This document shows, one piece after another, positions 1,998 through 53,466 of a stretch of DNA of 64,000 bases (its first letter is position 1; every line of letters starts with the position of its first letter). The translations under genes were made by a program, and so were the position numbers. The stretch covers positions 18,113,880 to 18,177,879 of the forward strand of contig OZ316895.1 of the NCBI GenBank assembly GCA_973895155.1, in the 5' to 3' direction. Below the pieces are notes generated by a model. The model was not told the DNA's origin. It was given only the letters and a program-made list of their open reading frames with translations, and did not search any database. The stretch is from Marsupella aquatica (lineage: Eukaryota > Plantae > Marchantiophyta).

Positions 1998-2112
1998 GGT
2001 TGCCCCTAATTGTTTATATTTTCCTTGTTTTGTCCCTATACTAAGGTGTTCCTAGGGTGCCTTCCTGCTTTACCCACTTAACCGGCCGAGTGATTCCTGT
2101 CTAGGCATCACA
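1..2112 (-). repeat. 3' LTR (partial, truncated by the window edge)
   Basis: Near-identical to 10390..12501. Begins TGTGATGCCTAG on the minus strand immediately after AAGTGGGGAGCTA. Confidence 0.9.
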
Positions 2113-4149
2113 TAGCTCCCCACTTAATTGTGAAGCGTCCTCGCAAACAACTTCATCTTCGTCCATATAGTATTTCTTGAGGCGGTCATAATGGATGCGA
2201 ACTGGATATACCTCTCCCGTAATGTTGGCCAATTGTACGGAGCCATTGGGGAACATCATGGTTACTCTAAAGGGTCCTAACCAGCGAGTGTAAAGCTTTC
2301 CTGGAAACCTACTATACCTACTGTCATAAAGTAGCACAAGATCACCGGTATGAATACTAACTACTTTTAACCTTTTATCATACTGCTGCTTCATGATATT
2401 CTGTCTATATTCTACTCTCTCGGCTGAAATCATTCTCGCTTCCTCTAAAGCTTCTAACCTATATTCTCGCTCCTTTAGGCTCTCCTCCGCTGAGGCTCTT
2501 TCCTCAATTGTAACTTGAAATGTCGGTATCTCAAGTTGCATGGGTACCAGGGCTTCTTGTCCAAAGGTTAAGAAGAAGGGTGTATGACCGGTAGTGGATT
2601 TATAGGCAAGATTGTAAGCAAAAACAGCAGCAAACAATTTATCATCCCAATCGAGTTTGTTCTGAGCTACTGTCTTGTTCAATATCTTTCCTATAATTCC
2701 GTTTGCTCGTTCTGTCAACCCGTTTGCCTTTGGATGGTAGGGAGTAGTAGGCCTATGTTTAACTAAATACTGCTCATTTAAACGACTAATTATATCATTC
2801 AAAAAATGGGTTCCTCTATCACTAACTAATTCTAGGGGTGCTCCATACCTGGTGAAGATCTGCTCATACATGAATCTAGCCGTAGTAATTGCATCATCCT
2901 TCGTTGTTGGTCTGGCCTCTACCCATTTAGTTGCATAATCCGTAGCCAGGATTATGTACTTGTTCCGTCGAGGGTGGGTCAGTGGTTTCAGAGGTCCAAT
3001 GTAATCAATACCCCACTTCTCGAATGGTGCCAGAGGTAGAATAGGGTGTAGTGGATGCCTGGTGGACGCCCTTGGTCCTCCCGCTCGTTGACAAGGATCG
3101 CATTGTTTGATAAACTGATAGACATCTTTGTGCAAGGTGGGCCACCAGTAACCGGCATTTAATATCTTTTTAGACGTGGTTACTGGGGCAAAATGTCCTC
3201 CGGCCTCCTCTCCATGCATGGCCCGTAGGACTCGTTTTACCTCTCTCTTTTCCAAACATCTTTGAATCGTGCCGTTGATTCCATGCTTGTGCAGTATGCC
3301 TTTAATGCACTGATACTGTCTGACCTTCCGCACAAAGACTGCGGCTTGCTCTCGGCTTAATCCTGGCTGTAATCTGGAAGTGCTGAGAAATTGTAAAATC
3401 TCAGGGTACCATGTACCAGCTATTTCCACAACGAATAGCTCCTCGTCGGGGAATCGATCATCGATGCAATCCGTGGCAGGTTTACCTGTGATCCTTGAAA
3501 AGAAGTCGGCATTGGCATGTAACTTTCCCGGCTTGATCCTCAGCTCATAGTCAAACTCCTGTAATAGCAAAATCCATCTTGCTACTCTGCCTGTAAGGTC
3601 CGGCTTATTGACTAGGTACTTCAAACTTTCATGATCAGTATGAAAGATTACCTTGTACCCTAGTAAATAATGCCTAAACTTTTTACAAGAATAAATGACT
3701 CCTAATGCTTCTCTTTCCGTGGTAGAGTAGTTCTGTTCGGCATCGGCAAGCTGACGGCTTGCGAAGTATATGGGATGGTCCCTTCCTTTCTCATCCAACT
3801 GACTTAGTACTGAGCCAATACAGAAGCCCGAGACATCTACAAAAACATGAAAATCTTTGTTCCAGTCCGGTGCTATCATGACTGGGGCCTCTACTAACAT
3901 CTGCTTCAATTCTACCACCGCTGTGACTCGTTCGGGTGTGGGTTCGAAGTCTGCTCCTGCCTTGAGCATATTGGTTAATGGTAAAGCTAGCTTGGCAAAA
4001 TCCTTGATGAACCGGCGATAGTAACCAATGCATCCCAAGAAGGATCTTACATCCTTTATGTTCTTAGGTTGCATGATATCTAGCCATACTGCTAGCTTAC
4101 CTTTGTCAATCTCAATGCCCTTCCTTGATACCTTGTGACCTAGTAGCAC
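2101..4149 (-). CDS. pol: Pol C-terminal part: RT thumb, RNase H, integrase
   Basis: VRSFLGCIGYYRRFIKDF; FVDVSGFCIGSVLSQ and NYSTTEREALG (RNase H); H-x6-H...CDPCQR zinc finger; WGIDYIGP, SDRGTHF and NGLTER (DDE); WLGPFRV (GPY/F motif). Confidence 0.95.
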   Translation of the reverse strand: MLLGHKVSRKGIEIDKGKLAVWLDIMQPKNIKDVRSFLGCIGYYRRFIKDFAKLALPLTNMLKAGADFEPTPERVTAVVELKQMLVEAPVMIAPDWNKDFHVFVDVSGFCIGSVLSQLDEKGRDHPIYFASRQLADAEQNYSTTEREALGVIYSCKKFRHYLLGYKVIFHTDHESLKYLVNKPDLTGRVARWILLLQEFDYELRIKPGKLHANADFFSRITGKPATDCIDDRFPDEELFVVEIAGTWYPEILQFLSTSRLQPGLSREQAAVFVRKVRQYQCIKGILHKHGINGTIQRCLEKREVKRVLRAMHGEEAGGHFAPVTTSKKILNAGYWWPTLHKDVYQFIKQCDPCQRAGGPRASTRHPLHPILPLAPFEKWGIDYIGPLKPLTHPRRNKYIILATDYATKWVEARPTTKDDAITTARFMYEQIFTRYGAPLELVSDRGTHFLNDIISRLNEQYLVKHRPTTPYHPKANGLTERANGIIGKILNKTVAQNKLDWDDKLFAAVFAYNLAYKSTTGHTPFFLTFGQEALVPMQLEIPTFQVTIEERASAEESLKEREYRLEALEEARMISAERVEYRQNIMKQQYDKRLKVVSIHTGDLVLLYDSRYSRFPGKLYTRWLGPFRVTMMFPNGSVQLANITGEVYPVRIHYDRLKKYYMDEDEVVCEDASQLSGELCDA
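2113..2127 (-). promoter_or_regulatory. Polypurine tract (PPT)
   Basis: Minus strand TTAAGTGGGGAGCTA lies directly before the TG that starts the repeat. Confidence 0.8.
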
Positions 4150-5368
4150 CCCTTCGGTTACTGCAAAAAAAACATTTATCTGGGTGTAACTTGAGACCCA
4201 CCTCTCTACATCTCATGAAGGTTTTCCTGAGGTATTTAGCATGTTTCGATGCCTTCCCGAATACTGCAAAGTCGTCAATGAAGATTTCCATGAACTTTCT
4301 CAAGTAATCATGAAAAATGTTCACCATTAATCGTTGGAACATAGCTGGTGCGTTGCAGAGTCCAAACGGCATACGATTGAAGACATAGATCCCCCATTCC
4401 GTGATGAAGGCCGTCTTGATTTGGTCTTCCTGTCGAATCCTGATTTGGTTATAACCAGAGTATCCATCCATGAATGAATATAGTTCATGACTGGCTACCA
4501 TGTCTAGTACCATATCAGTAAACGGTAAAGGAAAATGGTCTTTTAATGTTGCTTCATTCAGCTTCCTATAATCCTGACAAACCCGGATCTTGGGTTTACC
4601 ATCGGGTCCAGCTTTCTTGGGAACTATCACAATTGGAGACACCCAGTCTGAATGCAGGACTGGAGTGATGAATCCAGCTTCCACTAGTTTGTCGATTTCT
4701 GTTTTGACCAGCAGGGAATACTTCGGGTTCATCCTTCGAATTGGTTGTCGAAATGATTTGGCTCCTAACATGAGATCAATTCGATGTTCCCCTAGTGTTG
4801 GATCTACTCCCTTTAGATCTTGGTGACTCCATGCAAACACATCCTGAAATTCAATCAATAAGTCACTGATCTCTTTCTCGAGCTCAGGTGCTAGGTTTCT
4901 CCCTAAGTTCAGTTCTCTTCCCTCTCCTAAGTCGAGCTTCCGATATTGCCGTGCTTGGATCATATTAATCTGCTTCTTCAAATTCGGGTCCAGTTCGGCT
5001 TCCAGTCTCTCTAATCTCATACCTCCATAAACTGGGATCTCGGCTGGACTAGCCGAGTCGGTCCCTTCCTTGGTGTCCATAGATTGTCCCCTTACCGGTC
5101 TATTCGGTTTTGAATTAGTGGTCGGCTCCCCTTCCTGCCTTGGCTCTGGATCGTGTCTGTCCATCTCATCCACCTCTTGCTCCTGAGAGTTAGGCCGCTG
5201 TGCTCTCTCGGCTTCTAATAGGGCCTCAATTTGTTCTGCCCTCGTAATCGGCTTGTATGCCGATCCCTTGGTATTTAATTCCTTGCCGATGATCGATGGC
5301 GTTGTGAACCCTGCCGGCTCTGCCACAACGCCTGCAGAAAATCCACTGTCCCTGCTACTGCTCCCCAC
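4112..5368 (-). CDS. pol: Pol middle part: spacer plus reverse transcriptase
   Basis: WVSPIVIVPKK, RVCQDYRKLN, DGYSGYNQI, MPFGLCNAPA, FIDD. Joined to the next ORF across a T8 run at 4165..4172. Confidence 0.95.
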   Translation of the reverse strand: MGSSSRDSGFSAGVVAEPAGFTTPSIIGKELNTKGSAYKPITRAEQIEALLEAERAQRPNSQEQEVDEMDRHDPEPRQEGEPTTNSKPNRPVRGQSMDTKEGTDSASPAEIPVYGGMRLERLEAELDPNLKKQINMIQARQYRKLDLGEGRELNLGRNLAPELEKEISDLLIEFQDVFAWSHQDLKGVDPTLGEHRIDLMLGAKSFRQPIRRMNPKYSLLVKTEIDKLVEAGFITPVLHSDWVSPIVIVPKKAGPDGKPKIRVCQDYRKLNEATLKDHFPLPFTDMVLDMVASHELYSFMDGYSGYNQIRIRQEDQIKTAFITEWGIYVFNRMPFGLCNAPAMFQRLMVNIFHDYLRKFMEIFIDDFAVFGKASKHAKYLRKTFMRCREVGLKLHPDKCFFCSNRRGATRSQGIKEGH

Positions 5369-8268
5369 TTAGCCGTTTCATCCAATTGGTCTACATCCTT
5401 TACTTCCTCCGGAATTGCAGCTAAAAAGGTGGATTCTATTGTAAAGCAGTCCTCGACCTCTTCGTCTTCTTCTTCCAAGTCACCTTCCATTGGTTCTTGC
5501 CATAATCCGCTGGGGGCTACCTCTGGTCCAAAGACACCTTCTTCGGTTAGGTTAGTGAGGCATTCTAACCAACGTACTTCATCGGCTGACTCCAGTCCAC
5601 TGTCGTACCCATCTACTTCCCTTATGCTTTTCCTACGGTCATCCTTAGTGTCCCAGGATACCGTGATAGAGGGGGTCCCGAAAGTGAACTGCTTTTTACC
5701 CCAATCTTCTATTACCTCGGCTAGGTACAGCCATGGCCTACCAATCAATAGTCGGAATGACGTAGGATTTACCGGCTTCATTACTACATAGTTAATGCTA
5801 AAGAAGATACCTCCTATCTCTGTCTTGATGCCGGTTAACACTCCCGTGGGAATGACCTGATATCCATTGGCCATGTTCAACACTCTTCCAGTCATCTCCG
5901 GTGTTAGACCCCACCCTTTTGCTGTTGAATCAATCATAATACATACCCCTGATCCTCCATCGATGGGTACCCGTAGTAATAATTCTCCTTGAATCATTAA
6001 TGGTAATGCTGGGGCTCCTTGATCTTCTTCTATCATTAGTACGTCGGATCTGGTTGCTACCTTGGGTAATCTCGGCTTGCCGAGAATAGCCTTCCTTAAT
6101 TGCTTCCGGAAGTACGGGCTATTTTTCAATAGTTGACCTACTGTTGCCGAGACTCTAGATTCTAGTACATCTTTAGCCAGGTCATAGGGAACAATCGGCT
6201 TCTCTTCTGGTGGTGTTTCCGTCTTGGATTCGGCCAGTTTTGCCACGCTAGTCTCCACAGCTGTTGGGTCTTCCGAAGCAAACAATGCTTTTGCTCGTTT
6301 TACATCCTTGGCAATGGCTTCGGTATTCTCCAGGGTTTCTAATTCTCTTAGTTGTTCCTTAACACTAGCCGTAACAGAGGGGTAGAACAACTTAGGATGA
6401 TCTCGATTGAAGTCGCTATCTTGTGAAGGATTGGTTTCACTGGTGGGCTCATGGCTTACCTGTATTGCCGGAGCCCTCCCTTCTCCTTCTGTTGATGTTG
6501 ACGAAGAGTCGATCCTTTCCTCCGTAACCTTCCCTTTATTTTTGGCCAGCCCATCCCACCTTTCCTTCCTTCTGGTAGATCGAGTAGAGACCCGGTAGCA
6601 ATCATGATCTAAATCCTCCTCTGAGAAGGTTGATAGGGCTTCGGCCTCATCAGCAGATGGTACGAACTCTGCCTCGGCATCCTCTTGCCATCCTAGTTCG
6701 ATGTGGTTGATTTGAACTCCTCCGGGGGTAGTACCTGGCGGTAAGATCTTGATCGGCAAAAGCTTATGATTTGCGGCCAGGCCTGCCAACCAAGTAGGAC
6801 ATTGCCCTAGCATATGACCTTCCTGTCGGCATCCCATACATAGCTGAGCTGGTTGTCCATCACCCTGTTTGCGTGCATTCGGGCATTCTCTAGCAAAATG
6901 GCCAGGTTGACCACAATTATAGCACGCCGCAAATCTTTGCACATTCGGCCTAGGAGGTACTGACGGGTTCTGAATAATCCGAGGATACATCTCTCCTGGA
7001 TTGTTCCTTAACCCTGACCACAGAGATGCAGGTCTGTTGGATAGGTCTCGTGCTCCAGTCTCACTGATGCCGAAAACACTATCAGCGGCATCTCCTAAAA
7101 AGTACTCTACTTCTCCCTGACATGGTCTGATCTCGGCCACATGCCGAACATGATTAGTATTAAGCTTAGGACACGCATCTTTATGGTGTCCGGTTTTATA
7201 ACATAAGGCACACCATACAGAGCTATCCTCCTGTACTACCTTCTTCTTTGGTTTTACCTCTGCAATGATAGCCTTAAGTTGCTCGGTAAGGGCTACGATG
7301 TTATCTGGTGGCTTAGCCTCCATCTTGACTTTCGTCTTCCCTCTCCTTCTGCCCTTCCTTTTCCTAGTTTTTTCTTCTTCAGAACTAGAAGATGACTCAC
7401 TCTTGCTACTCCCACTATCCGAGCTTGACTTATCACTTCTAGACTTCTTGGGATGTTTCTTCTTCTTATCTTTTTTCTTATGGGGTGATCCCTCCTCTGA
7501 TGAGGAACTCTCAGACTTAAGCTGTTTCTTCCGGCTTGTGATATCTGCATTAATGTATAATTGAATATCCTTAATTGCTTCGGCTAAAGTCTCCGGGTTC
7601 TCCTTCCTAATTGCAAAACTCATCTTCTGTGGCAAAGCATTCACCAACCATTGAAGTTGCATACCTTCAGATGCATTGGTCTTTGTACGTCTTACCAGTT
7701 TCTGAAAGCGTTGCAAGAACTTCCTGAAGGATTTGTTCTCCTTGAACCAAAGTTGTCCCAACTTGAGCACTGCTAGTTCTGAAGTTCCAATGGGTCGAAA
7801 CTCCTTAACAAAGAGTGTTTTGAAGATATCCCAGATGGCTTGATCTTCCACATCTAATGCTCTGTACCAAGGCCTAGCCTCACCCTTGAACAGGCCGGGA
7901 AGAATCTGCATCTTGATGGCCGATTCTCCATTTGCTGCAGCGGTTCCCTCGAAATCATCCAACCATTCGTCCGGATCCTCATCTCCTCTCCCATGAAATG
8001 CCTTGTAATGTATGCGCGACCGCTGGCTCAATCTGGTCCCTGGCCTCTCGTCTGGCCGTGCCTCTGGTTCCCCCATGTCGGTTGGAGACTCACTTCTCCT
8101 TACCGACTCTTCTTCTGGTATGTCTTCTTCGACGCCACTCCCAGTTTCGGAGCTACCAGCTCTTTCTGCCCCTCTCAGTCGCTGTGTATCATGCCACCCG
8201 GCGAGCTGCTGTAGTCGAGCTCTCTCCCGTTGAATCACTCTTTCTTCCCTCGGCGTAAGGTCAGTCAT
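5275..8268 (-). CDS. gag: Gag-protease polyprotein (997 aa)
   Basis: Retrotransposon gag core (EDPDEWL...LFKGEARPWY...F), three CX2CX4HX4C knuckles, and aspartic protease motifs IDGGSG and LLIGRPWL. Confidence 0.93.
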   Translation of the reverse strand: MTDLTPREERVIQRERARLQQLAGWHDTQRLRGAERAGSSETGSGVEEDIPEEESVRRSESPTDMGEPEARPDERPGTRLSQRSRIHYKAFHGRGDEDPDEWLDDFEGTAAANGESAIKMQILPGLFKGEARPWYRALDVEDQAIWDIFKTLFVKEFRPIGTSELAVLKLGQLWFKENKSFRKFLQRFQKLVRRTKTNASEGMQLQWLVNALPQKMSFAIRKENPETLAEAIKDIQLYINADITSRKKQLKSESSSSEEGSPHKKKDKKKKHPKKSRSDKSSSDSGSSKSESSSSSEEEKTRKRKGRRRGKTKVKMEAKPPDNIVALTEQLKAIIAEVKPKKKVVQEDSSVWCALCYKTGHHKDACPKLNTNHVRHVAEIRPCQGEVEYFLGDAADSVFGISETGARDLSNRPASLWSGLRNNPGEMYPRIIQNPSVPPRPNVQRFAACYNCGQPGHFARECPNARKQGDGQPAQLCMGCRQEGHMLGQCPTWLAGLAANHKLLPIKILPPGTTPGGVQINHIELGWQEDAEAEFVPSADEAEALSTFSEEDLDHDCYRVSTRSTRRKERWDGLAKNKGKVTEERIDSSSTSTEGEGRAPAIQVSHEPTSETNPSQDSDFNRDHPKLFYPSVTASVKEQLRELETLENTEAIAKDVKRAKALFASEDPTAVETSVAKLAESKTETPPEEKPIVPYDLAKDVLESRVSATVGQLLKNSPYFRKQLRKAILGKPRLPKVATRSDVLMIEEDQGAPALPLMIQGELLLRVPIDGGSGVCIMIDSTAKGWGLTPEMTGRVLNMANGYQVIPTGVLTGIKTEIGGIFFSINYVVMKPVNPTSFRLLIGRPWLYLAEVIEDWGKKQFTFGTPSITVSWDTKDDRRKSIREVDGYDSGLESADEVRWLECLTNLTEEGVFGPEVAPSGLWQEPMEGDLEEEDEEVEDCFTIESTFLAAIPEEVKDVDQLDETAKWGAVAGTVDFLQALWQSRQGSQRHRSSARN
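5285..5344 (-). promoter_or_regulatory. Candidate programmed -1 ribosomal frameshift signal
   Basis: In-phase G_GAU_UUU at 5344..5338, a 5-nt spacer, then a perfect 9-bp stem (GGCGTTGTG 5332..5324 with CACAACGCC 5306..5298). It lies inside the overlap of the 0 and -1 frames. Confidence 0.7.
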
Positions 8269-8315
8269 TACCTACGCTTCCGTTCTAACTTCATATCTCA
8301 CGGCTTAAGAAATGC

Positions 8316-8333
8316 CCCCTCCATCTAGCGCCA
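8316..8333 (-). promoter_or_regulatory. Primer-binding site (non-Met tRNA type, TGGCGCTAGATGGAGGGG)
   Basis: TGG start (complement of tRNA CCA) follows the LTR end ...CACCACA and TTTT. The cognate tRNA was not determined. Confidence 0.7.
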
Positions 8334-8337
8334 AAAA

Positions 8338-11300
8338 TGTGGTGCGTCCCATGGCTCCCTAAACCCAAGAAACCCCCCTGCTCAAGCCGATTCCCGCAGG
8401 TTTCGTGCTTGGCGAGGCCGTTTCCGCGGCTTAGCGGCATGGGACGCTGCTAACCTTCTACTACTACTATTAACATTTTACACACATATACTGGACAGAT
8501 CCTTCATCGGGTCATGAGATACGTAGCCGGCCTAATATAGGCCTTCCCCTGTCTTCCCCTGTCTTCCCCTCCGTCTTGTTAGGTATGTTTGGATTCCGCC
8601 GCCGGAATGATCCCCAATAGGCTTGGTTAAGCCGCTAAGACCTCTCTTAGCTCGACACATCCAACTCTCACTCCCCTGCTTACTTTCCTTCCTTCTGTTG
8701 ATGTGGGCACTCTTCACACAAGTTAATGCGACACACAAATAGCAAAATGACTCATTCTGACTGAGTCATACCATGCACTTGCCATACAAACAGTACATCT
8801 CATACACAAGTTCTGCGAACTAAGCCGTGAGGCCAACTCTATTCAGCTCTTAGGCATGAGGAAACATGAATATACACAAGGGTCACTGTATGACTAACCG
8901 AGAGCTTCTCGTACTACTTGATCCCAGCCCGGCTGGTGCAAACTAAAAACTTGCTAAAGAAGAGGCCCTGAGCTCCCCGCTGCCCAGGTACTTATCCTGG
9001 TAGTGGATCCGCCATTCTTTGCATCGTAAGCCTAATCTACTTAACAGTAATCTACTTGCCCGAATCTACCTATGTATAGCAAGGCAGGAGCACAAGTGTT
9101 GCTCCTACCAGTGGGACCGCAATCCCACTAAGCTAAGTGTCAGGGCCGCTCCTGGTTCTGATCCTAATCCTAAACGTGGAGATCCGCGCCCGCCCTGCCC
9201 ACTCACGCCTCCTCCCTCCACGTCCGCCCTCCCTAAAAGGAACGGCGCCCTTGCACCGTCACGACACCGGTGGTGGATCCTTAATGGACGCCCCCAACGC
9301 TTCCTCCTCAGCCACTGCCGTAGGCTCATTCCCTGACAGATTACCTGCCCTTGACTCAACTCTCCATTGGCCTGACTGGGTCCACCATCGGCGTCGGCAT
9401 CGGCTCGAGAATCGGTTACGGCCTTAGCCTCGGCTACGGTCTCCCCGGCCTGCTCAAGAGGCGGATCTGGAATACTGGCCTCCTTACTGAGTAGTTCGGC
9501 TTGGGCCGCACCATCCCTACCTGTGATCATAGCGGGATCTATTGCCGTATTCATGTCGGAGGATGGTGCTGGTTCTACCTCTTTGGTCACCACGGCTTGT
9601 GGAGTCGGATTACTCCTTGACCCTGAAGGTTTCCGCTTTTTCTTCTTTTCTGGTTCGGCAGCTGGTCCCTTCCCCTTCCCACTTACCTCCGGCACTGGTG
9701 CAGTTGGCGCGGCTTTTTCTTCGGCCAGTACCACTCCTGGTAACTTGGTTGCCCCAATTGGAGTTGGGCCTGATGAAGACAAGCACCTAAATACTGCGGC
9801 TTGTTTCTTCAGCCGCTCCGTTTGGTTGTCGGCCCGCCGCTGGAGGTTCTCCATCTTTCTCGTGATTTCCTCCAACTCCTCCTGGGTCTCATCCAGGTCC
9901 TTGCATGCCTCCTCTAGTTCCTTATGGGCTTCCTCCCGTTCTTGTTTCAAGGTAGTCCTCTCCTCCTGGGTTGCTTTTAGCTCCTTGTCGAGCTCTGCAA
10001 TGATGACAGACTCCATCTGGTTTATCTTGGCGTAAGTCTGTTCGAGCATCTCGTCCTTCTCCCTTAGGTCGGCCTTGAAGCTGGCCGTCAGGGACGCAAG
10101 CTCCTGCTGCAGCGCCATAATCCCTTGATAGGATTTCCCTAACTCGGCCTCCTTCTGCTCAAGGGCTCCGCGGATTTTCTCGAGCTCCCCTTTCAACGCC
10201 CATTCCTTTCTTTGGGTCTCCGCCATGGCCCGGCTGTTGGCTGTTATGTGGGCCTCCTCTGTATTCTTCAGCTCTTGCTTCCACTTCTCCCTCTCTTTGA
10301 TCGTGTCGGCCAACTCTTCCTGCGTCTGAGTCAGTTTATCCTTGATATTCTGATTATCAGCCTGCGCGGTGTCCAACTGCCCCTGCATGATGTTCAGCTC
10401 ATGTCGTTTAATCCGTAGTTCATCTTGGGCTTTCTTGGCCGTCCTTAGATCTTCAATCTCGGCTTCCATCCTCCTAAGCCGCCGAATGACCTCGTCCTTC
10501 TTGCTTCTCTCTAAAGCCACCGCTTCTTCTAATTGGTGCTTCTCCAACTGCTCCCTATGGAAAAAGGGTCCTACCTCCAACTCCTCTCCGTCGGTAGGAG
10601 CTTGAGGCAATTCTGCCTCAGATTCGGAGCTTGAGGTTCCCACGTACATTCGAACACCTGGCTTGGATTCCGGCCTGATTCTCTCCTTGTCTCCAGCAAA
10701 GGGGTTTTCTCTTGTGAGCCGGTGTAGGCCTACCTCTGTAGTAGTGTCCTGCATTGTTGTCGTTGCCGTTGTTGTTGCCGATGCCGATTTCTTTTCTTTC
10801 TCCAGTAGTTTCAGCAGACTCTGCATGCCTGGTTGCTGCATCGGCAAGTCCTCCTTCCTGGGCCTAAACACCTGCTCGATCGTAGGACTAACAGGTGGTT
10901 GAGGCTTCTCAGCCAACGGCCTCGGCGTTGGAGCTTCCTCGGGTGCCCTTACCTGCAGGGGAAGTACCGGGGCAAAAGTCTGACCTCTGGCATACCGGCA
11001 CAACAGCGGCATGTGATAGCCCAGCCGCGACACGCTCCCCGTGCCGATTAGCTGCTGCTCCTCCTTTAAGATCTTCTTCAATTGGTTGAGGAGGTACCCG
11101 TTGTAGTCCCGGCTTGGGTCTGGCCTTTCTGCCAGATAGACCTGTGCCTTGCCGATCTCTGCCCTCGGGAAGTTACAATGCATGGTCACCCGCAAGAAGT
11201 CGATCATCTCTCCTATGTGCGGGTTGGTGCAGGTGTTCCGGAAGAAGCCATTCTTTGTTGATGGCCCGGGGAACGACCGGAACTCCTTGTCAGGCAAGGT

Positions 11301-12501
11301 CTTCCTGGTATCAACTTTGGTCTTATTGCCTATCGGCAGGCCAAACACTTCGGCAATTACCTTGGGAGTAAGATAGAAATCCTTCCCATATATCCTCGTG
11401 CAATTGGTCTCGGGTTCCCATGACCCCACGAATTCTAATAGGTCTGACTCCGGTACCTCCGGCTTCAGCCATGGTAATCTTACAAAGGCCTCCAAGCCGG
11501 ATCCGGCCATGAAGCCTTGGTACTTCTTGGTCTGCATGGCCGTAAAGCATGCATCCTCCTCCCGTGCAAAATGTAGTTGCACCTCCATCGGTAGGGTTGC
11601 CGCCCAGCCCTTCCAGGTGTCATCCCTGGTTGGAATGGCCTTGATGGGATCGACCTCCTCCTCTTCGGCTTCTCCCTGCCTCCTGTTCTGCTGCTCGGCT
11701 GGCTTCTTTGGTGCCGCCGACCTCGTTCTTTTTGCCGGGGTGGCTTCATCGTTGACGGCTCCCTTCCTCTTCATCTCTGCTGCCGTGGAGGTTTCTCCTA
11801 GCACCGTTGCCTGGGTCCACCTTTCCGTGCTACCCTTTAATTCCCAGTGTATGTCGTTGCAGTTCTTGATGGCCTCTCGGATGCCGACGACGCTGTCTTT
11901 GCAAAACAGAAGATCGTCGAGTTGATTGGAAGTAGGCGTCCACAGGAACTCGTCCTTGATGAGTTTGCCTCCTAAGAAAGCCGTCTTCTGCAGCTCCCAC
12001 AATCGAGCGAGCTCCTGCCATTCTCGAGCTGCCCTTTCTGGCTCCTCGTCCTCGTAAGTCTTGATGTACTCAGTTGCCCGTTCGAACAGGCATCCCCAGA
12101 AATGTGCCGCTTGATTGACGTTGCTCATACCCTCCTTAGGTCGATCGTCGGTATCTACTCTCTCCCCGAGTGCTTGCCTAAGCAGCTGACAGTAGTTGGC
12201 CTCCCGTAGTCGTCTGCCTAGTTCGTGCTCGCAAATGAGCCACCATCTCCTGCAAGCGCTCCTTACCCCTCTCCTCCGCCGGTCCTTCTTCCCGTTGATC
12301 CTTCCTAGCCGCCGACGCTTAACGCGCCCTAACCCTAATCGGGTTTTCACCCTCAGCCTTACCTCCGGCCTCGGCCCGGGTTCCATGGTTGCCCCTAATT
12401 GTTTATATTTTCCTTGTTTTGTCCCTATACTAAGGTGTTCCTAGGGTGCCTTCCTGCTTTACCCACTTAACCGGCCGAGTGATTCCTGTCTAGGCATCAC
12501 A
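8338..12501 (-). repeat. 5' LTR, 4164 bp, containing a long ORF
   Basis: Termini TGTGATGC...GCACCACA form a 7/8 inverted match. Followed by the PBS. Identity to the 3' copy stops exactly at 12501/2112. Confidence 0.88.
9105..12386 (-). CDS. LTR-encoded 1093-aa protein (about 1007 aa if it starts at ATG 12128): PMD/plant-transposon-like domain plus long coiled coil
   Basis: Uninterrupted 3.3-kb ORF. The motif EFVGSWEPETNCTRIYGKDFYLTPKVIAEVFGLPIG resembles Plant Mobile Domain cores. E/K/Q/L heptad region at ~aa 600-860. Homologous to 26003..28255. Confidence 0.85.
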   Translation of the reverse strand: MEPGPRPEVRLRVKTRLGLGRVKRRRLGRINGKKDRRRRGVRSACRRWWLICEHELGRRLREANYCQLLRQALGERVDTDDRPKEGMSNVNQAAHFWGCLFERATEYIKTYEDEEPERAAREWQELARLWELQKTAFLGGKLIKDEFLWTPTSNQLDDLLFCKDSVVGIREAIKNCNDIHWELKGSTERWTQATVLGETSTAAEMKRKGAVNDEATPAKRTRSAAPKKPAEQQNRRQGEAEEEEVDPIKAIPTRDDTWKGWAATLPMEVQLHFAREEDACFTAMQTKKYQGFMAGSGLEAFVRLPWLKPEVPESDLLEFVGSWEPETNCTRIYGKDFYLTPKVIAEVFGLPIGNKTKVDTRKTLPDKEFRSFPGPSTKNGFFRNTCTNPHIGEMIDFLRVTMHCNFPRAEIGKAQVYLAERPDPSRDYNGYLLNQLKKILKEEQQLIGTGSVSRLGYHMPLLCRYARGQTFAPVLPLQVRAPEEAPTPRPLAEKPQPPVSPTIEQVFRPRKEDLPMQQPGMQSLLKLLEKEKKSASATTTATTTMQDTTTEVGLHRLTRENPFAGDKERIRPESKPGVRMYVGTSSSESEAELPQAPTDGEELEVGPFFHREQLEKHQLEEAVALERSKKDEVIRRLRRMEAEIEDLRTAKKAQDELRIKRHELNIMQGQLDTAQADNQNIKDKLTQTQEELADTIKEREKWKQELKNTEEAHITANSRAMAETQRKEWALKGELEKIRGALEQKEAELGKSYQGIMALQQELASLTASFKADLREKDEMLEQTYAKINQMESVIIAELDKELKATQEERTTLKQEREEAHKELEEACKDLDETQEELEEITRKMENLQRRADNQTERLKKQAAVFRCLSSSGPTPIGATKLPGVVLAEEKAAPTAPVPEVSGKGKGPAAEPEKKKKRKPSGSRSNPTPQAVVTKEVEPAPSSDMNTAIDPAMITGRDGAAQAELLSKEASIPDPPLEQAGETVAEAKAVTDSRADADADGGPSQANGELSQGQVICQGMSLRQWLRRKRWGRPLRIHHRCRDGARAPFLLGRADVEGGGVSGQGGRGSPRLGLGSEPGAALTLSLVGLRSHW

Positions 12502-21453: not shown

Positions 21454-21910
21454 AGCGGCCTACCACCGTGGTGAACTGGTACAGGCAGCTGTAGCTACCC
21501 TTGTGAGTTGTATCCTAGTTTCACTCCTCTTGGCCTCTTAAGGATAAAATTGGATTGCGTGGGTGCTAGAGGTTGTTGGGCGGCCAATTTGCTTTTTGCG
21601 AGTGGAAGTTGATGGTGCCCGCCCTACATTTGTGGGCGGGCTAGTTCAAACCAAAGGGGAGCGCCCCAAGGGGAGGATATTGGGTCCGATGAGTTTGGAT
21701 TTAGCTTACTTGTTTGGACTGGCATCCTACTTGGATAAGTGGGATAGGTTGGAATTTCCTAAGTTTGGAATGCGCATACCAACCTGGTTTGCATCAGCCT
21801 TATGGGCAAACCATTTGTTACCTCATACAACTTTTAAAAGGCCCAAAGTGGTCTAGGCGTGTTGGAACGTTTACTGAGGTCACGCGGATGTGACCATTTT
21901 TAAGGGGGGG

Positions 21911-23392: not shown

Positions 23393-24341
23393 CTTGGTGG
23401 GAGGATGAGTCCCTCTACTCGATCTAGCCAAGAGAACGGATCCCATCAAATGGATACTTCCCCCGAGTTTCACACTCTTGGGATCCAGGGCCAACGCTTT
23501 CTTTAATCCAAAGTACCACCATCCGTAGGCATGCTTCGGGTGGTTTTTGATGTCATTGGCAATAGCCAACTGATCCCCACTTACCACTTTGGATTGGCCA
23601 CGACAAAGCACCCGTTAGTGTATCTTGGCCACAAATCCCTTGTACCCTGGTTACCTAAAGGATGAGAGGGGAATGTTGGTTATGGAGGTGGGATCCTTCA
23701 CCACCTCTACAAGCTTCTCCAACGTGGGTACCCCTGGTGGATCCACCGGCTGCAATGAGAAGTTTTGGTTATTGAGAAACTCTAATTGGACTAGTTTGGT
23801 GTTGGGGATCAAACGTCGTGTGCAATGAAAGTGTATCCCCTCCGTCCGCAACTCCATTCTTGCCCAAATGTCCCAACTCCTACCCGGGGGAATTATGATC
23901 TCCAACCTCATGAAATCCGTGAGACGGGTGGCCTGGAATATTTACTTGCACTCCTCCATCACCTTGGCAGAAGTCCGGGGGTACACTCTACGGAAAACCT
24001 TCCTCGCAACGGATGCGTTACAGGTGTCCGGTCCGGTATTCATGGCTGCTAGTCTCCCTTCTCTCTCTTCAACAATCCGTGACGCAATGTAGTCCCGGTA
24101 AGTGGCCTTGTATTTACGGATACAGGCTGCACTGAACTTCGACTTCTCCAACGACGATCTTATTCACATTCAGTTCACAACAATTTCTCTCGTCACCCGT
24201 AACCCAATGCAATCCTTGGCCTGAAAAAGCCCGCGTGACACGATTGAATGCCCACAACCAGACTGTCAATTTCTGTTTCCCTTGGCCCAAGCAGCCCCTG
24301 TAATGCGTCTTGGGTCGCCTCCGCTTCTCCGTCAAGAGCAC
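23393..24341 (-). pseudogene. Decayed ORF, probable distant homolog of the LTR-encoded protein
   Basis: ORFs 23942..24151, 23651..23911 and 23342..23611 share one frame broken by stops. IFQATRLTDFMRL and NIPLSSFR*PGYKGFVAKIH*RVLCRGQSKVVSGDQL align by eye with FMAGSGLEAFVRL and NGFFRNTCTNPHIGEMIDFLRVTMHCNFPRAEIGKAQV. Confidence 0.5.
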
Positions 24342-25500
24342 CCAACTGATGCCGTCACAAGGACCCCAACCACAATGAACACTTAACCTCCCTCAAGGAG
24401 AGCTTTCAAAAATGTGAGGGAGGAAAAGAGAATGCATTCGGAAATGTGGAAGGAGGAAGGGAGCTTTTGGCAATGGGGAGAGGAAAAAAACGCTTTCAAA
24501 AATGGGAAGGGAAAGAATGTGTTTTCAAAACCCGAAAACTCCCTCATCCTTATACTCGCTCCTGCTTGTGGCTCCCTCTTAATGGCCTTGGCACTTTCCT
24601 TGGAGCCGGGGCCTTGTACCTGCCCTCCCAGACGAGCTCCCAGATCCTGCTGTACCTGCCCTTTGAGTATCTGGGGTTTAATTTCCCCTTGCCACCCTTA
24701 TTACCTGCTTGCAAGGCCTCCCCCAAGTGCAAGGAGCCTCCAAATCCTGGGTGGCTTTTATTAGCCTCTTTACCAAATGGCGCGAGGCCCTATGGCCTGC
24801 CCCCAACTTGTCATTCCTCCCCCCGGTACCTGCTCACCCCAAGATTCGGGGAGCTTTAATGCCCCCCAATCTCTTGCCCCTTGGTACCTGCTCCTGCCCC
24901 AGGCCTGGCACCTATCCGCGAGGCCTCCCACAGGTGCAGGGAGACTCCAAATACGGGGAGCCCTTATTAGGCCCCCTCAACTTCTCCTTCGTCAACCGGC
25001 TCGCAGCCCTATGGGTGCCCTTTATGGCTGTCCCCTCCTGACTCGCTCCCTAGTCCCGGGAGCTACTAATTGCCCCCTGAGGCCTCCCTAAGGATGGGGG
25101 ATTAAATTTCCCCACCCCTCGCTGCCCCTTTGCCCTGGCGCTTGTGACGCCGCCGGTACGGCGGTTAATGAGTGATTCAGTCTAACTGCGCTCGGCACGC
25201 GCATTAGGTGGGTCTTAGGCCGCTATTATTAGCATAACGACAGTATTTAGGTAATCATTAGGGGTAGGACATCATTAGGCAATAAGGGGGACTTCAGGTT
25301 CGGGCTGGCGGCGGGTCGCTATTCGCACACCCGGGTTACGAGCGTGGAGGGGCCCCTCCCTCGGGTCCGTATAACGAACTTAAGGAAGCGGCCACTGACG
25401 CACGCTGACTCAGACCGGCGGAGTGGCCGGTACACCACAAGCGTGAGCGGTTCAACCTATGGGCGTCGAGGAGACGTCGGGGATCGACAAGCCCTCAAAG

Positions 25501-25507
25501 TATAAAA
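25501..25507 (+). promoter_or_regulatory. TATA box candidate upstream of the solo-LTR gene
   Basis: TATAAAA followed by a CT-rich stretch, about 100 nt before ATG 25609. Confidence 0.5.
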
Positions 25508-25608
25508 GGGGAGCCAACCCTTTGTAGTGCACCAGTCCATCAGTCCGTGCGCCAGCTTCGACCCCAGCTCTCTCGTTCTCTCTAGGTCGCCACTACTATC
25601 TCCTCTGA

Positions 25609-25971
25609 ATGTCGCACACGATCCTCTCCAGCTCGGCCATTCGATTCTGGACGCAGTTCCTATCTACCGGAAGGCACTTGGCCGATTCATTGAAACACGC
25701 CAACCCGCGCCGATACGAGATCGAACGCGAATACGAGAGAGCCATCCGCCTAGCAGGACGACACCACTACGTCCTTAACTTTGACTACCCGTCTCAGAGC
25801 GAGCTTTACCGACCAGCTGAGGTATCTGGGTACTTCTTCAACGGAGACAAATATCGGGTTCTGGGAAGCATTGCTTCGGCTTCCGGACGAGGTCTTCAAT
25901 ATCCCGGGTACAATCGACCTGTAGCGACATCACTTCGACCACATCCCTGCCCAGGTTTGGGCTGTCATTAA
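25609..25971 (+). CDS. N-terminal segment of the solo-LTR protein, frameshifted from the main ORF
   Basis: MSHTILSSSAIRFWTQFL...NPRRYEIEREYERAIRL aligns with MSNVNQAAHFWGCLF...EPERAAREWQELARL of the 1093-aa protein. Confidence 0.55.
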   Translation: MSHTILSSSAIRFWTQFLSTGRHLADSLKHANPRRYEIEREYERAIRLAGRHHYVLNFDYPSQSELYRPAEVSGYFFNGDKYRVLGSIASASGRGLQYPGYNRPVATSLRPHPCPGLGCH

Positions 25972-26002
25972 CGGCGAGTCCAGTACCAACCGTTCGACAA
26001 GG

Positions 26003-28255
26003 GTGTCCGCACTCGCTTCGGAGAACTTCTACCAGCATCTACAGAGCTTCATGGGAACTCGGCCATCAACCAACATGACCAACTCAGCCGGACCCGTACC
26101 CATACCCGTACCCGTACCCGTGCCCATGCAACCTCAGCTTCAGCTTCAGCCTCAGCCGCGGCCTAGCCAAACCCCACCACCTATCACCCAGCCAGCACAG
26201 GTACGCTCCGTCATCAACGCTGTGGATCTTAGCGATGACGACGAGGCTACCCCACCCTTGACCAGGCGGCCCAGAGGAACAAGCGCTCGGGGGGCCGACA
26301 CTATATCATCCCCACCCCCTGCTCTGACCCCAGGAGCGGCCCCAGCAGACAACATGGTGACCGTGGCCGCCCCGGGCCCGTTACCAACCGCAGTGGCACT
26401 CCCCAGGCCCGATCGGGAGGATGGGGAAGTATCACCTTCCCCGAGTCAGTCACGGGGAAAGAAGAGGAAGGAATCCGCCAGTGCATCCGGGTTACCGTTG
26501 GCCACGGTAGCCGTAGCCAAGGTAACGATGCATCGCATGGGGGAAAACGTTCACAGCAACATCCTCCATCCCAAGCATGCGGTGTACCTGAAGACTCAGG
26601 GATTTGAGCACCTCGCCTCTCTCCCCTGGAACACTTGCAGGTACTACAGGGAGGACATGACAGAATTCGTCAAGAATTATGACGACGTACGTCAACAGAC
26701 TCGGCTGCGGGGAAGGAATATGTCCCTCACAGAAGAACGGCTCAAGATGATCTTCGGGTTACCCGAAGGTGACCATCGAGTCGAATCACGGGCTCCCGGG
26801 GGCAAGGGGGCCAAGTACCAATCTTCAAGTTTTCCCTCAGAGGGATCAGTGGACAACGGGTTCGTGATGAGGACCTGCCTCATGCCCGAGATAGCTGAGC
26901 GGCTGGAGTTCCAGAGGTACGCTCTCCACATGATGGAACCCCGGGGGGAGATCTCCGTTGCCCAGGTCATCCAGGTCGAGAACTATCGACCTAGGAAATG
27001 GGCGTCGTACTTCGCTAAGAAATTCCATGAAGAGATGGAGCCGCGAAGGAAGACGCTGTACATTGGCGGGAAAGCATATTTCGCTAGCCACATCGAAATC
27101 ATTCTTGAGTGGTACGCCCGGTTTGATCGACGAACCCTTCCCCGCATCAACGTTACAAAGCTGGTCCCAGCTAGGTGGGTTTTTCCGGCATTGGAGCGAC
27201 GGCCCCAACCCGAGGCCCGAAGTCCAGTGGACACGCCAGCTTCACCCACCCCACCTCCACAAATAGCTGTAATCGTAACCGAGGAGGCGCCGGAGGGGTC
27301 GGTCATCGCAACCGTTGATGCGACCCAACTAGCCGGGCTAAGTACAGAAGTTGGTACGGCAGAGGTCTTACCCGAACCCGGGTCTCCCAAGGACCCGCCG
27401 GTGGCAATTCCGGAGAACCGGACATCGCTGCATGAGGACACTCCAGCCCCTTCCAACGTTATGTCCCCAGGGCTGGACGTCACTGCCCCGGCCCCTGCAC
27501 GTGTTGATGTCTGCCCGTGCCCAAATCCGGACAGGCACAACTTGGACCACCCGGAACTCTTCATACAGGGTACGTTTCTGAACGGGCTTCTGGGAGATTT
27601 CTCTCATCAAATTGCCCGGGATACCGGGGAGTTCATGGCCCGGAAGGTAGCCTGTTTCTTCAATCAGGAGTTGGTTGCCGCCGTAAAGGCAGGTCGGGCC
27701 CAGTCGGAGGCCCTTCAGAGGATAGAGCGGTACCGGGTGGAGTCCGTGTACCTAAAGAACGAAGTGGCAGCTCAAGAGGCTGAGCTTCTGCAACTACGAC
27801 CCAAGGTTGCAGCCGCCGATGAGTTGTTAGCAAAGGCGTACGCTCTTACCGCCCTAGCCGAACAAGCCAAAGCTGGGAACGAGGCCGAGATTACACGACT
27901 CCGGAACCAGATTGACAGTTTGAAGAAACAAGCTGTCACCTGGCAGAAAGACCTGGAGGAGGCCGAGGAGCGAGCCCAGCGGGACGCGACGGAGATAGCC
28001 ACGCTGCAGGCCGAGATGGCGCGGCTCCAAACCGAGGCCGAGAAGCAGGACCAGCTGGCGAGTAAACTGACGAGCGACGCCCAGCAGCTGGAGGAGGCAT
28101 GTCAGGAGGCAGCAGAGGAGACGGACGCGGCGAGGCGAGAGAACGAATCTCTACTGGACCAGGTCCAGCTTCTCAAAGCGGACAATGACAGGCTTCGAAG
28201 GCAGCGGGATGGCCGTTCCCATTCGGGCGGCTCTGGCAAGCGTGCCAGGCATTAG
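26003..28255 (+). CDS. Solo-LTR-encoded protein (750 aa open): PMD/plant-transposon-like domain plus coiled coil
   Basis: GFEHLASLPW...EFVKNYD...TRLRGRNMSLTEERLKMIFGLPEG...NGFVMRTCLMPEIAERLEFQRYALHMMEPRGEISVAQV matches the 9105..12386 core. C-terminal heptads. Confidence 0.85.
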   Translation: MSALASENFYQHLQSFMGTRPSTNMTNSAGPVPIPVPVPVPMQPQLQLQPQPRPSQTPPPITQPAQVRSVINAVDLSDDDEATPPLTRRPRGTSARGADTISSPPPALTPGAAPADNMVTVAAPGPLPTAVALPRPDREDGEVSPSPSQSRGKKRKESASASGLPLATVAVAKVTMHRMGENVHSNILHPKHAVYLKTQGFEHLASLPWNTCRYYREDMTEFVKNYDDVRQQTRLRGRNMSLTEERLKMIFGLPEGDHRVESRAPGGKGAKYQSSSFPSEGSVDNGFVMRTCLMPEIAERLEFQRYALHMMEPRGEISVAQVIQVENYRPRKWASYFAKKFHEEMEPRRKTLYIGGKAYFASHIEIILEWYARFDRRTLPRINVTKLVPARWVFPALERRPQPEARSPVDTPASPTPPPQIAVIVTEEAPEGSVIATVDATQLAGLSTEVGTAEVLPEPGSPKDPPVAIPENRTSLHEDTPAPSNVMSPGLDVTAPAPARVDVCPCPNPDRHNLDHPELFIQGTFLNGLLGDFSHQIARDTGEFMARKVACFFNQELVAAVKAGRAQSEALQRIERYRVESVYLKNEVAAQEAELLQLRPKVAAADELLAKAYALTALAEQAKAGNEAEITRLRNQIDSLKKQAVTWQKDLEEAEERAQRDATEIATLQAEMARLQTEAEKQDQLASKLTSDAQQLEEACQEAAEETDAARRENESLLDQVQLLKADNDRLRRQRDGRSHSGGSGKRARH

Positions 28256-30299
28256 CGGCAGAGTAGGAATAGATTAGGATTAGGATTGGCTTAGTCAGGC
28301 TCTTGGGACAGGCACCTGCCTTAGGTACAGCAGCGCTGCCCTGCTGTCCAGCCTGCGTAGATTAGGATCTTCTAATAAGACACAGCCGTTTTCCGGCCTG
28401 ACTGTCAGCTTAGTTAGGACCTTGGTCAGCGGATCTTCGGCGGGAGGACGCCCCGTTCCTCGGCTCTTTGTATTTAGTGCACCCCTCGGTAGAGGCAGGG
28501 GGGGTTTTTAGTTTTAGAGTCGGATATCCGCGGGACATGCGGGGAGTCCCGACCTCTGGGAATGACAGAGTACCAAGGGGAGGGGGTAGGACTAAGCTCG
28601 CCGGGCGAGTGCGGAGCCGGGCTCCGTTGTAGTGTGCACCCTTGGCCTTGAACCTGTGCATTCCAAGGCTGTCGTGTCAACTAAGTGTACGCATATGTTC
28701 CCTTTGTAGTAAAATCCTTTCCCATCATTTTTCCTTCGTGTAAATCGAGATTGTATGCATGTGTGCGCATATGTGTGTGGGTTTCTCGTATATGGGTGGC
28801 AGTGCCGGGCCAAACGCACTACCCGAGACGTGCACAGGGTGCAGCCTGCGGGTAAGTGGTTGCGAGCACGGGTTGAGGACCTGTATCATCGAATCCGGAT
28901 CGAAGGCGGACAGCACGAAGGCTTAGAAGCCCTTAAGCCGGGGTCGATCCTGCTATCGACTAAGGTACGTTCCGGCGGCGGAACACAAACCATACCTAGG
29001 AGGTGTCCGTATTTAGCAGTATGCGCACTTAGCGCTAGTTTACGAGAATAAGGTGCATTACGTGCTTCCCTTCCTGCCCGAACCCTCAGATTTACGAGGG
29101 ATGTGCCCGTCTAAGCTGAAGTCTGAGTTAAGGCCGAAGCCTACGATGTGACAGTGCTGACTCACTTCCTTGGGCTGTCAGGGCCCTTACCCAGCTCTTT
29201 CCTCCCGGGTCTCCCTCCGGCTCGCTTCCCTGCCCTCTGCTCTTGGCTCACCTCCCTACCCTCTGCTCCCGGCTTGCCTCCCTATGCCTTGCTGCCGGGC
29301 TCCGCCCTCCTCTGGCCCTCCCCTACCGGGGTTCACTGCAAGTTGGGCCTCCATTGCCGGACCCAGCTGACCTTATGAGTTCCCGGGCTTGGGATTCCAT
29401 GTGGCAGCCTCCGGGTTGCCCCTTATGGGCTCCCCTTCTCCTACCGGCCTCAACAAAAGGGGCTCTAATCCCCCCAAAAGCCCTGTACCCTAGCCGGGAC
29501 TTAACCTGCCAGGGTACTCTATTTTCACGGCATGGCCGTTACTCCCCGGCTCCAAGTCCACCGACCCTCCAATGCACACCGTGAACACACAGAATCGTCT
29601 CATTAACTGAGTTATGAAAAAAATTTAAAAATAAGTGGGAAATAGGATATTTACATGTGGCTTATCTACATCAAAAACACTCCGTAACCAATTAAGGTTG
29701 GTCTTTGGGGACGGGGACCCTGTCACAATCTATAAAACCAAGTCTATCAAGGGTTGGCCAAAATTGGCCCTTATGGAGTGCGTTAGTTAAAGATTGCACC
29801 TCTATCAGAGGGACCAACAGCTTCCTCATCACCACCAAGTTCCATCGTAAGGGGTTCCTCAACCAGTTCCTCTTGATTATCCTGGGGTCTTGACAATTAT
29901 TCTTTGTAGAAAAACAACAATGATGCTCACAATTGCCTTGCAATCGACAGGATCCTACAATGGAGAAACTCCTCAAGAAACTCTTGCAGGATCTATATCT
30001 CATGAGAAAGTACATGTGAAGAATGAGGAAGAGAATGTTGTCCCTCCAACCTATATCCCCCAATATCCCCCAGGGGGTCAAGATGTGTGGGCCTAATCTA
30101 AGTGGACTTTATCCTAATGTAATCTATGGTTAACTAACCCTAGTAAGGCCAAACTAACTAGAAGCCAAGAACTTGAGTCAATTCCTAAAAGGTTGATCCC
30201 TTCCTATCAAGATGTTGCCCTACTTTGGCTCATAAGAACACAAACCCAATTGGATGGACACAAAAGAAAGGAACAAGTAGACCCTAATATCCAATCTAG

Positions 30300-36486: not shown

Positions 36487-36957
36487 AAAAGTATGCTCGC
36501 TGTGTGCCCACCAGTTCTTCGATAAAAAATGCTTGAAATGACACGACGAATGCAGTCAAGCGGTGCAAGCTGATCGATAAATTAGGTGTGCGATGGAGTT
36601 TCAGCTCGCTTTGCCTGGTCTGCCCGTCTTCAGCTGGGCGTCCTTCAGTGTTTAGTAATGTTGTACTGCCATGCGTTCTGCTCCAGCTCGTCACTCCGCC
36701 TCTCAGAGTACTTGGTAATCACCAGAGAGAACCCAGAACCCTGTTGTTCACCTGCTGCACAGTACTGGTGACAGCAGCAGGTGTCTTCTCTTTAATGGCT
36801 GAACTTTCAGCCTTGTGGCCCAAAATTACTTTGTTGGCCCAAAATTACTCTTTCTTCTCCGCGCACTAGATTCTGCGTATACGATTTTGTGCATATGATT
36901 CTGAAAAATACAGTGTGCAATACTAAAGAGAATGCATTGCATTTACAACCCTTTTTT

Positions 36958-45445: not shown

Positions 45446-45723
45446 ACTTAAATGCCAACAAGGCTTCTTTCGATAGCTTGCTAATTATGGAATAGCCTGC
45501 CAGCACCAAAACTGGGACCGTGAGGAGCATAATTTTGATTTTTGAAGGTTCTCTTTTAGCCAGGGTGGCTAATGTTGAGGAATTTGCTTGGGAGTACCCC
45601 TAGAGATATGCTTAGTAGACCCCCTTCTGTAAAAAGTTTGCTTAATCAACCCCCTCTATATTGTTCCCCAATCTGGACCGTTGATGGACCTTTCGGTCTC
45701 AGATCTGGACCGGTGATAGACCT

Positions 45724-53461: not shown

Positions 53462-53466
53462 CACCT

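Follow-up and report, generated by a model that had tools for sequence, protein, structure and literature searches.

VANC proteins are accessory proteins of the Arabidopsis VANDAL elements, which are Mutator-like; they bind short motifs and remove methylation from their own family (PMC5735166), resemble MAIN/PMD proteins and carry a coiled coil predicted to oligomerise (PMC13547354). PMD-A clades are encoded by Gypsy elements and known from angiosperms (PMC5418596). The extra open reading frames (ORFs) of plant long terminal repeat (LTR) retrotransposons have been placed in the internal region of the elements, and their role is an open question (PMC7264820); the alteration of their own silencing by Athila-like proteins is stated to be uninvestigated (PMC12844716). 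The available text of a liverwort genome paper lists lineages only (PMC12885004). Here we describe a 64,000-nucleotide stretch of DNA (the window) from the liverwort Marsupella aquatica (assembly GCA_973895155.1, contig OZ316895.1, positions 18,113,880 to 18,177,879) and a 4011-bp segment in it, 25143..29153 on the forward strand, which is very probably a solo LTR of a high-copy Ty3 family (family 2). We lean towards the reading that this LTR holds a whole accessory gene coding for a nuclear DNA-binding anti-silencing factor of the VANC/PMD type, and that the gene is broken in this copy. PMD/VANC-type genes in Ty3 elements are already known; what appears to be new is a gene of this predicted type inside the LTR, in two families. 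The second family (family 1) is a Ty3 element at 1-12501 of the window whose LTR encodes a homologous protein.

The family-2 segment begins with TG and ends with CA (TGTGACGCC at 25143 and GATGTGACA at 29153). It is bordered by a near-perfect 5-bp target-site duplication (TSD), GCGCT at 25138..25142 and GTGCT at 29154..29158, which agrees at 4/5 bases (chance ~1.6% on uniform bases) with a C/T mismatch at a CpG. A first-pass annotation of this DNA had reported the same ends and duplication, and both hold. A TSD match that could arise by chance was dropped as the sole support for an LTR, and copy-boundary data were used instead, read from depth and loose ends in public runs. Nine listed runs cover the segment in part, and four of these contain at least half of its words; none is recorded as RNA. 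Depth steps at the left edge, 25143, in 4/4 runs. It is ~1e5 inside the segment versus 1e2 in the flanks in runs X1 and X2 and 1e4 versus 15-74 in X4, while X5 covers the element only, with 23-308 inside and 0-2 in the flanks. The right edge, 29153, is reached by 2/4 runs (not X5 or X6), where depth falls from 6249 to 22 (X4) and from 18509 to 85 (X2). Loose ends with mixed flanks were found at 25143 (12 contigs with agreement 0.45 in X4 and 5 contigs with 0.51 in X5, among 24 of 1127 loose ends) and at 29153 (7 and 8 contigs, 0.50 and 0.51). Because depth edges and mixed loose ends coincide at 25143 and 29153, the copies of family 2 have both boundaries in common, as the first-pass annotation expected. 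The depth ratio is not a copy number; a firmer floor is given by one 87-bp X4 contig with a depth of 3579, compared with 12-22 for flank contigs. Family 2 consists of hundreds of copies or more with common ends.

No second copy of the segment lies within the 64-kb window. The flanks of the copy at 25143..29153 resemble neither a primer-binding site (PBS) nor a polypurine tract (PPT), and neither terminal inverted repeats beyond 5/6 bases nor internal direct repeats are seen at its ends. Ahead of 25143, the X5 summary line is rich in purines; its last 8 bases, GGGAGCTA, are the end of the family-1 PPT. Joined to the start of the family-2 LTR, GGGAGCTA gives a 13-mer of the family-1 PPT/LTR junction (2108-2120); the chance of the 8-letter match in register is ~1.5e-5 on uniform bases. 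The LTR call for family 2 is likely correct, strong but indirect, because no PBS is visible behind 29153 and no gag-pol is linked to the segment. We note that flank contigs of X1, X2 and X4 (24700-25171 and 29124-29600) carry 0-1 differences and continue for 28-30 bases inside the element, just under a threshold of 31 bases, and the same insertion is likely present in both organisms to which these runs are assigned. The solo LTR is nested in an older, degraded, chromodomain-bearing Ty3 element (window ~17000-29727, forward strand) with reverse transcriptase (RT) at 18653-19735, a chromodomain ending at 21453 and a purine tract before 21911. Its possible LTR extends from 21911 to TGTCACA at 29721-29727 (~3.8 kb minus the insertion); 39290-40752 holds a 65% copy, and no trace of a VANC-like domain was found in this element.

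The gene of the family-2 LTR is read on the forward strand in three pieces. The first (25609..25866) contains the ATG and most of an N-terminal helical domain and is ended by a frameshift near 25850-25866. The second (25865..25924) contains the rest of this domain and ends in a TAG at 25922-25924 that is missing from other copies. The third is the main open frame of 776 codons (25925..28255), which comprises a Pro/Ser-rich linker, a central domain with a predicted VANC21-like fold (26522..27169), another linker, a coiled coil and a basic tail. The coiled coil (27692..28204, limits approximate) is predicted from heptads in a charged stretch with almost no proline, and this region gives a weak match to Pfam GAS below the cutoff. 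Basic clusters of the protein include RGKKRK and GKRARH. The frameshift and the stop were placed by alignment to uninterrupted relatives, as the pieces 25630-25866 and 25865-25972, which are in different frames, match the N-terminus of P0005 and P0045 (E 3e-10). Of the two lesions that the first-pass annotation put at 25880..25924, the TAG is where it was said to be and the frameshift lies slightly upstream. At 25922-24 another letter is found in >99% of the depth in 4/4 runs, and the stop is therefore private to this copy or to a small minority. The copy at 25143..29153 is a pseudogene, with a frameshift and a stop, and is decaying. The earlier statement that the solo LTR retains the gene is thus not upheld in the sense of a working copy, and any selection acts on the family, not on this locus.

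The gene is uninterrupted in family 1, which lies on the reverse strand. Its 5' LTR (8338..12501) is 4164 bp long, close to the 4011 bp of family 2 as had been pointed out, and its 3' LTR (1..2112) is truncated by the window start. The sequence 10390-12501 repeats 1-2112 at 99.43% identity, and this repeat covers the leader of the ORF and the N-terminal and central domains; the remainder is assigned to the LTR by the CA/PBS boundary. Since the window start cuts the second copy, the far end at 8338 is placed by a CA and by the PBS-like TGGCGC (8315..8333) that lies 4 bases after the 5' LTR. No tRNA gene for PBS comparison is present in the 64-kb window. The ORF (9105..12128) encodes 1007 residues from the Met that aligns with relatives; it has no introns, and a further in-frame ATG lies upstream at 12386. 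Between the LTRs, gag-pol (2101..8271) occupies three frames with gag, a zinc knuckle, RT, RNase H and integrase, and the pol stop is located 12 bp inside the 3' LTR. The PPT (2113..2125) falls within the end of pol. An env-like role for the gene was rejected, as the ORF is inside the repeat and the PPT in the end of pol, leaving it not between pol and the 3' LTR, and as no transmembrane segment was detected (maximum 19-residue hydropathy 0.88-1.26 in 4/4 proteins).

The RT-RNase H-integrase order of family 1 comes with no Pfam match to a chromodomain or an extra RNase H, and liverwort 'Tat Z2' and Athila are described, in the available text of the source, as having neither (PMC13468544). The family-1 RT is 68-71% identical to RTs of Calypogeia fissa. 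In a tree built from 29 of 120 matches, to which labelled references for the Athila, Tat Z2 and Phygy lineages do not belong, it nests with Calypogeia (clade support 97/94) inside a liverwort group (91/87), apart from angiosperm and chromovirus RTs. This placement points to a leafy liverwort as the probable host. The gag-pol frames overlap at 5275-5368 and, within RT, at 4112-4212 despite the 99.4% LTR identity, which could reflect lesions, programmed shifts or assembly errors. The insertion adjoins a cluster of TTGCGAA/TTCGCAA motifs (12500-12680) with an imperfect palindrome at 12501-12551; this cluster is possibly the end of another mobile element.

The two LTRs have the same layout of leader, coding part and tail, as the first-pass annotation had noticed: 466, ~2650 and 898 bp in family 2, and 373, 3024 and 767 bp in family 1, counted from the aligned Met. 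A candidate promoter, TATAAA, is located at 25501..25506 (forward strand); the ATG lies 108 bp downstream, behind a leader rich in pyrimidines. The claim that the families have no nucleotide similarity is contradicted by two elements common to both LTRs. They start with TGTGA-GCC, and their tails contain a 29-bp motif (28970..28998, forward strand, in family 2; 8580..8607, reverse strand, in family 1) at 26/29 identity, a score reached by 0/1000 shuffles. The motif lies 155-270 bp from the LTR 3' end and may be a cis element near the R region. Its folding is not better than that of shuffles (z -0.42 and 0.31), and for this reason no RNA hairpin is proposed. Scans of metagenomes with the protein and with the tail motif, and of viral contigs with the tail motif, gave no match.

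Homology of the proteins, by contrast, is clear, as had been claimed. Pairwise comparison of families 1 and 2 gives 29% identity over 185 residues (E 3e-19), in the central domain only; tblastx matches coding frames only (E 9e-17), and between the N-terminal domains of the two families a profile built from relatives gives a weak match (E 0.001-0.007). When the central domain was searched exhaustively against 1.84 billion representatives, 41 relatives were recovered at E<=0.001; one of them, P0030, is a repeat protein and was excluded from the alignment. The relatives have a common architecture, with an N-terminal domain of ~110 residues, a low-complexity linker and the central domain, and a coiled coil in the full-length ones. 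Word-indexed homolog searches gave no match, the proteins of the LTR gene have no Pfam match above cutoff, and no transposase was matched in the ORFs scanned; the gene sits in an LTR, not in a VANDAL/Mutator-like DNA transposon. Four of the 10 relatives' clusters looked up are 'unnamed protein products' of Calypogeia fissa, and one of these clusters has 6 members, on scaffolds of 3 lengths. The C. fissa genes include CAM6101870.1, CAM6086213.1 and CAM6105325.1. The prediction that such loci would be annotated as host genes is borne out to the extent that relatives, which may or may not lie in LTRs, carry such annotation in this species.

The gene of the family is likely under selection, judging from the sequence comparison, because the domain order and 29% protein identity have been kept while DNA similarity has vanished except at the ends and in one motif. 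Variants relative to family copies are mostly transitions, and 15/27 variant places in the main frame are at third positions (p 0.014), a weak bias found among 40 of 289 variants that mix private and common changes. The earlier proposal that the gene is an integral, selected part of the LTR can therefore be kept for its location, within the unit in two families. The broken copy at 25143..29153 gives no support for selection, which is suggested by protein conservation between the families and the weak third-position bias.

The fold of the central domain was predicted with AlphaFold2 (26522-27190) from the alignment of 42 sequences, with a pLDDT of 90.5 and a pTM of 0.86. The top Foldseek match is VANC21-DNA (prob 0.98, TM 0.53, E 0.022), and the next match has an E of 2.4 and a TM of 0.13. 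An independent structure aligner run on 48,161 chains also returned VANC21, with a Z of 8.0 and an rmsd of 4.2 over 204 aligned residues, followed by a next Z of 2.2. The VANC21 match has a middling score, is isolated and spans the whole central domain. These comparisons suggest with good confidence that the central domain has a VANC/PMD-type fold. It gave no clear match in a viral fold library. Atlas leads at 0.81-0.82, below the trusted level of 0.9, point to Transposase_32, ATHILA and DUF1985 clusters. The N-terminal domain, modelled from the sequence of relative P0054 (pLDDT 89.9), has no clear match among solved structures (Foldseek best E 2.2; best Z 4.8). The first-pass annotation had labelled the protein by its coiled coil, which is indeed predicted, and overlooked the more informative part, the VANC-like central domain.

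Compared with VANC (VANC21, PDB 9LNJ/9LNK), the LTR gene has a central domain of the same predicted fold and a conserved domain amid variable low-complexity regions (PMC5735166), and both are transposon-encoded accessory proteins with a predicted coiled coil, that of VANC being predicted to oligomerise (PMC13547354). VANC is described as dicot-specific (PMC13547354), whereas the LTR gene belongs to a liverwort LTR retrotransposon and lies inside the LTR; it has no clear arrays of target motifs, has an extra N-terminal domain and is 9-10% identical to VANC. The LTR gene is thus VANC-like in predicted fold and in setting, not VANC by membership, as it has no DUF1985 match in Pfam and is not Mutator-like. 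The PMD-A ORFs of angiosperm Ty3/Gypsy elements and the host MAIN/MAIL genes would be of the same structural superfamily through the reported VANC-PMD similarity. They differ in that 0/42 members of the LTR-gene family have a Pfam PMD match, and in that the reviewed extra ORFs are internal (PMC7264820) and the LTR gene is within the LTR.

Another group for comparison is formed by Athila/Tat-type ORFs (env-like, ATHILA PF03078, Transposase_32 PF20167, Retand/Grande antisense ORFs and Retrosat2 ORF0). The LTR gene is likewise an accessory ORF of a Ty3 element that reads in sense orientation and encodes a coiled coil, and weak leads from Atlas and Pfam connect it to Transposase_32 and ATHILA. By contrast, no spacer separates pol from the 3' LTR in family 1, and the gene is found in both LTRs, remains in solo LTRs and encodes no transmembrane segment. 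Retrosat2 has LTRs of >3.2 kb, and the available text describes its ORF0 only as upstream of gag-pol (PMC3485330). An architectural precedent is sag/naf of mouse mammary tumour virus (MMTV), a protein gene that lies in U3 and is driven by a promoter of its own there (PMC9412291). MMTV is an animal retrovirus and its protein and role are unrelated, whereas the LTR gene, with ~900-1000 codons, fills 3/4 of a 4-kb plant LTR. A plant element with a whole gene inside its LTR was not found in the literature covered by the search, outside which most subscription papers lie.

These observations may be explained as follows. Plus-strand priming at the very end of pol would place the gene inside U3 and copy it into both LTRs; other plant Ty3 elements keep such a gene between pol and the 3' LTR. 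The TATA promoter near the LTR 5' end would drive the gene, with the mRNA ending at the LTR poly(A) site, and genomic RNA would start in the 0.8-0.9-kb tail near the common 29-bp motif. This two-promoter layout of U3 is the arrangement that we favour, with some reservation. The protein may oligomerise via its coiled coil, bind short motifs in the LTRs of its family and oppose DNA methylation or H3K27me3. The anti-silencing role, proposed by analogy to VANC, which strips methylation from its own family, has in our view about an even chance of being right. DNA methylation or H3K27me3 could be the target because PMD-C proteins counteract Polycomb (10.1101/2024.09.27.615353) and H3K27me3 is found on many transposons of Marchantia (10.1101/827881). 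Recombination between LTRs would then delete gag-pol and keep promoter, gene and terminator, and solo LTRs, while young, could be a source of the factor in trans before decaying like the copy at 25143..29153. Tentatively, and with more doubt than confidence, we put forward a broader form of this proposal, a leafy-liverwort Ty3 clade whose LTR would itself be a full cassette of an anti-silencing gene. The gene would code for a DNA-binding factor of the VANC/PMD fold and lie in U3, with two copies in each element, and would come through solo-LTR formation intact.

The same gene and fold could serve another job, such as integration targeting, activation of the LTR as an ordinary transcription factor, handling of element RNA or a MAIN-like restraint of copy number. 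Fold likeness does not fix function, the PMD proteins MAIN/MAIL1 act in silencing (PMC5418596) and against Polycomb (10.1101/2024.09.27.615353), and both the extra N-terminal domain, whose best solved match is at Z 4.8, and the lack of clear motif arrays fit such a job. Still, the sole tested transposon-encoded protein with this fold that we encountered is an anti-silencing factor (PMC5735166), and the protein has no membrane segment; we regard another job as unlikely, though well worth weighing. A similarly low chance is given to a gene in R/U5, where a single 5' promoter would make genomic RNA with the ORF as the first cistron, comparable to ORF0 or Ogre ORF1 before gag, and gag-pol would be expressed by splicing or reinitiation. 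The tails contain no TATAAA, the sole one of each LTR is indeed close to the 5' end (+359 and +95), and Retrosat2 ORF0 lies upstream of gag-pol (PMC3485330). This arrangement would however need ~3.6-4 kb of strong-stop DNA, on the standard scheme of reverse transcription, and a suppressed poly(A) site in the 5' LTR, and the one DNA motif conserved between families belongs to the tail, at a distance of 155-270 bp from the LTR's 3' end.

The 4-kb unit might instead move by itself as a non-autonomous unit without its own gag-pol, by integration of LTR circles or in the manner of a DNA transposon. VANC genes belong to DNA transposons, most loose ends have mixed flanks, and no PBS or gag-pol was seen for family 2 in the loose-end data. 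Against this stand the PPT-like flank identical to the family-1 junction, the start and tail motif common to an LTR that brackets gag-pol, and the lack of terminal inverted repeats beyond 5/6 bases and of internal direct repeats at the ends, which together make a self-moving unit improbable. A host gene for a coiled-coil protein, or a passenger that was captured a single time and has since drifted neutrally, would agree with the annotation of relatives as Calypogeia fissa genes and with the broken state of this copy. It is contradicted by hundreds of copies or more with common ends, by the presence of the gene in the two LTRs of the family-1 Ty3 element, where it has no introns, and by protein conservation after DNA similarity was gone. 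It is largely refuted at this locus and very improbable; a host gene in particular was rejected by copy number and common ends.

Several observations weigh against the reading of a VANC/PMD-type anti-silencing gene in the LTR of a Ty3 family. The PPT evidence for family 2 is a single X5 summary line (5 contigs, agreement 0.51) with a weaker, partial echo in X4, no PBS-like sequence follows 29153 in two mixed loose-end lines, and no family-2 gag-pol was found in the loose-end data or linked to the segment. The assignment of the gene to U3 is read from motifs only. The VANC21 fold match is moderate, at 9-10% identity, a profile search of PDB sequences did not recover VANC21 or anything else meaningful, and a common fold shows no function. 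DUF1985 or PMD was matched in 0/42 members in Pfam at E<=0.1, and Transposase_32 in 1/42 (E 0.059). In the first descriptions of the host PMD proteins MAIN/MAIL1, these promote silencing (PMC5418596). No dense motif arrays of the VANC type are evident, with nothing significant in family 1 and a borderline excess of (A)TTAGG in the non-coding parts of family 2 (ATTAGG 6 times versus 0.46 expected, reached by 42/1000 shuffles; (A)TTAGG 10 forward and 0 reverse, 42-50 of 1000 shuffles). Finally, the 12 differences between the family-1 LTRs comprise 9 non-synonymous and 3 synonymous ones, which fits neutral decay after insertion.

If the gene sits in the LTR, the formation of a solo LTR would leave a self-contained gene behind. 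On the broader proposal, the main deletion route of the host would, rather than neutralise the family, scatter hundreds of anti-silencing genes that act in trans. If the proposal is true, a retrotransposon would possess a sequence-specific anti-silencing system, and the VANC/PMD fold would occur in retroelements of non-vascular plants; this would bear on whether host MAIN/PMD genes derive from transposons, the origin of PMD being open (PMC5418596). The LTR gene is in any case a candidate, with a predicted VANC-like fold, for the question of what accessory ORFs do in plant LTR retrotransposons (PMC7264820), and as the genome contains two diverged families, specificity can be tested directly. 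For annotation, coding LTRs can be labelled as host coiled-coil genes. Coding LTRs of 4 kb can also escape LTR finders with short length limits.

Other features of the window are as follows. A 542-codon ORF at 14921-16549 (reverse strand) has DUF4283 and a zinc knuckle and resembles a LINE ORF1. A 607-codon ORF in a single frame at 34732-36555 (reverse strand) encodes a SET domain (E 6e-21) and may be a host gene or a transposon passenger. The interval 45723-58662 contains a pair of related copia-type elements that point in opposite directions and seem to be nested, with RVT_2 at 51388-52971 and repeat pairs at 46464-46757/53168-53461 (96%) and 45723-46066/58316-58662 (91%). AT-rich tandem units of 58 bp, some of them inverted, are found at 62140-62645.

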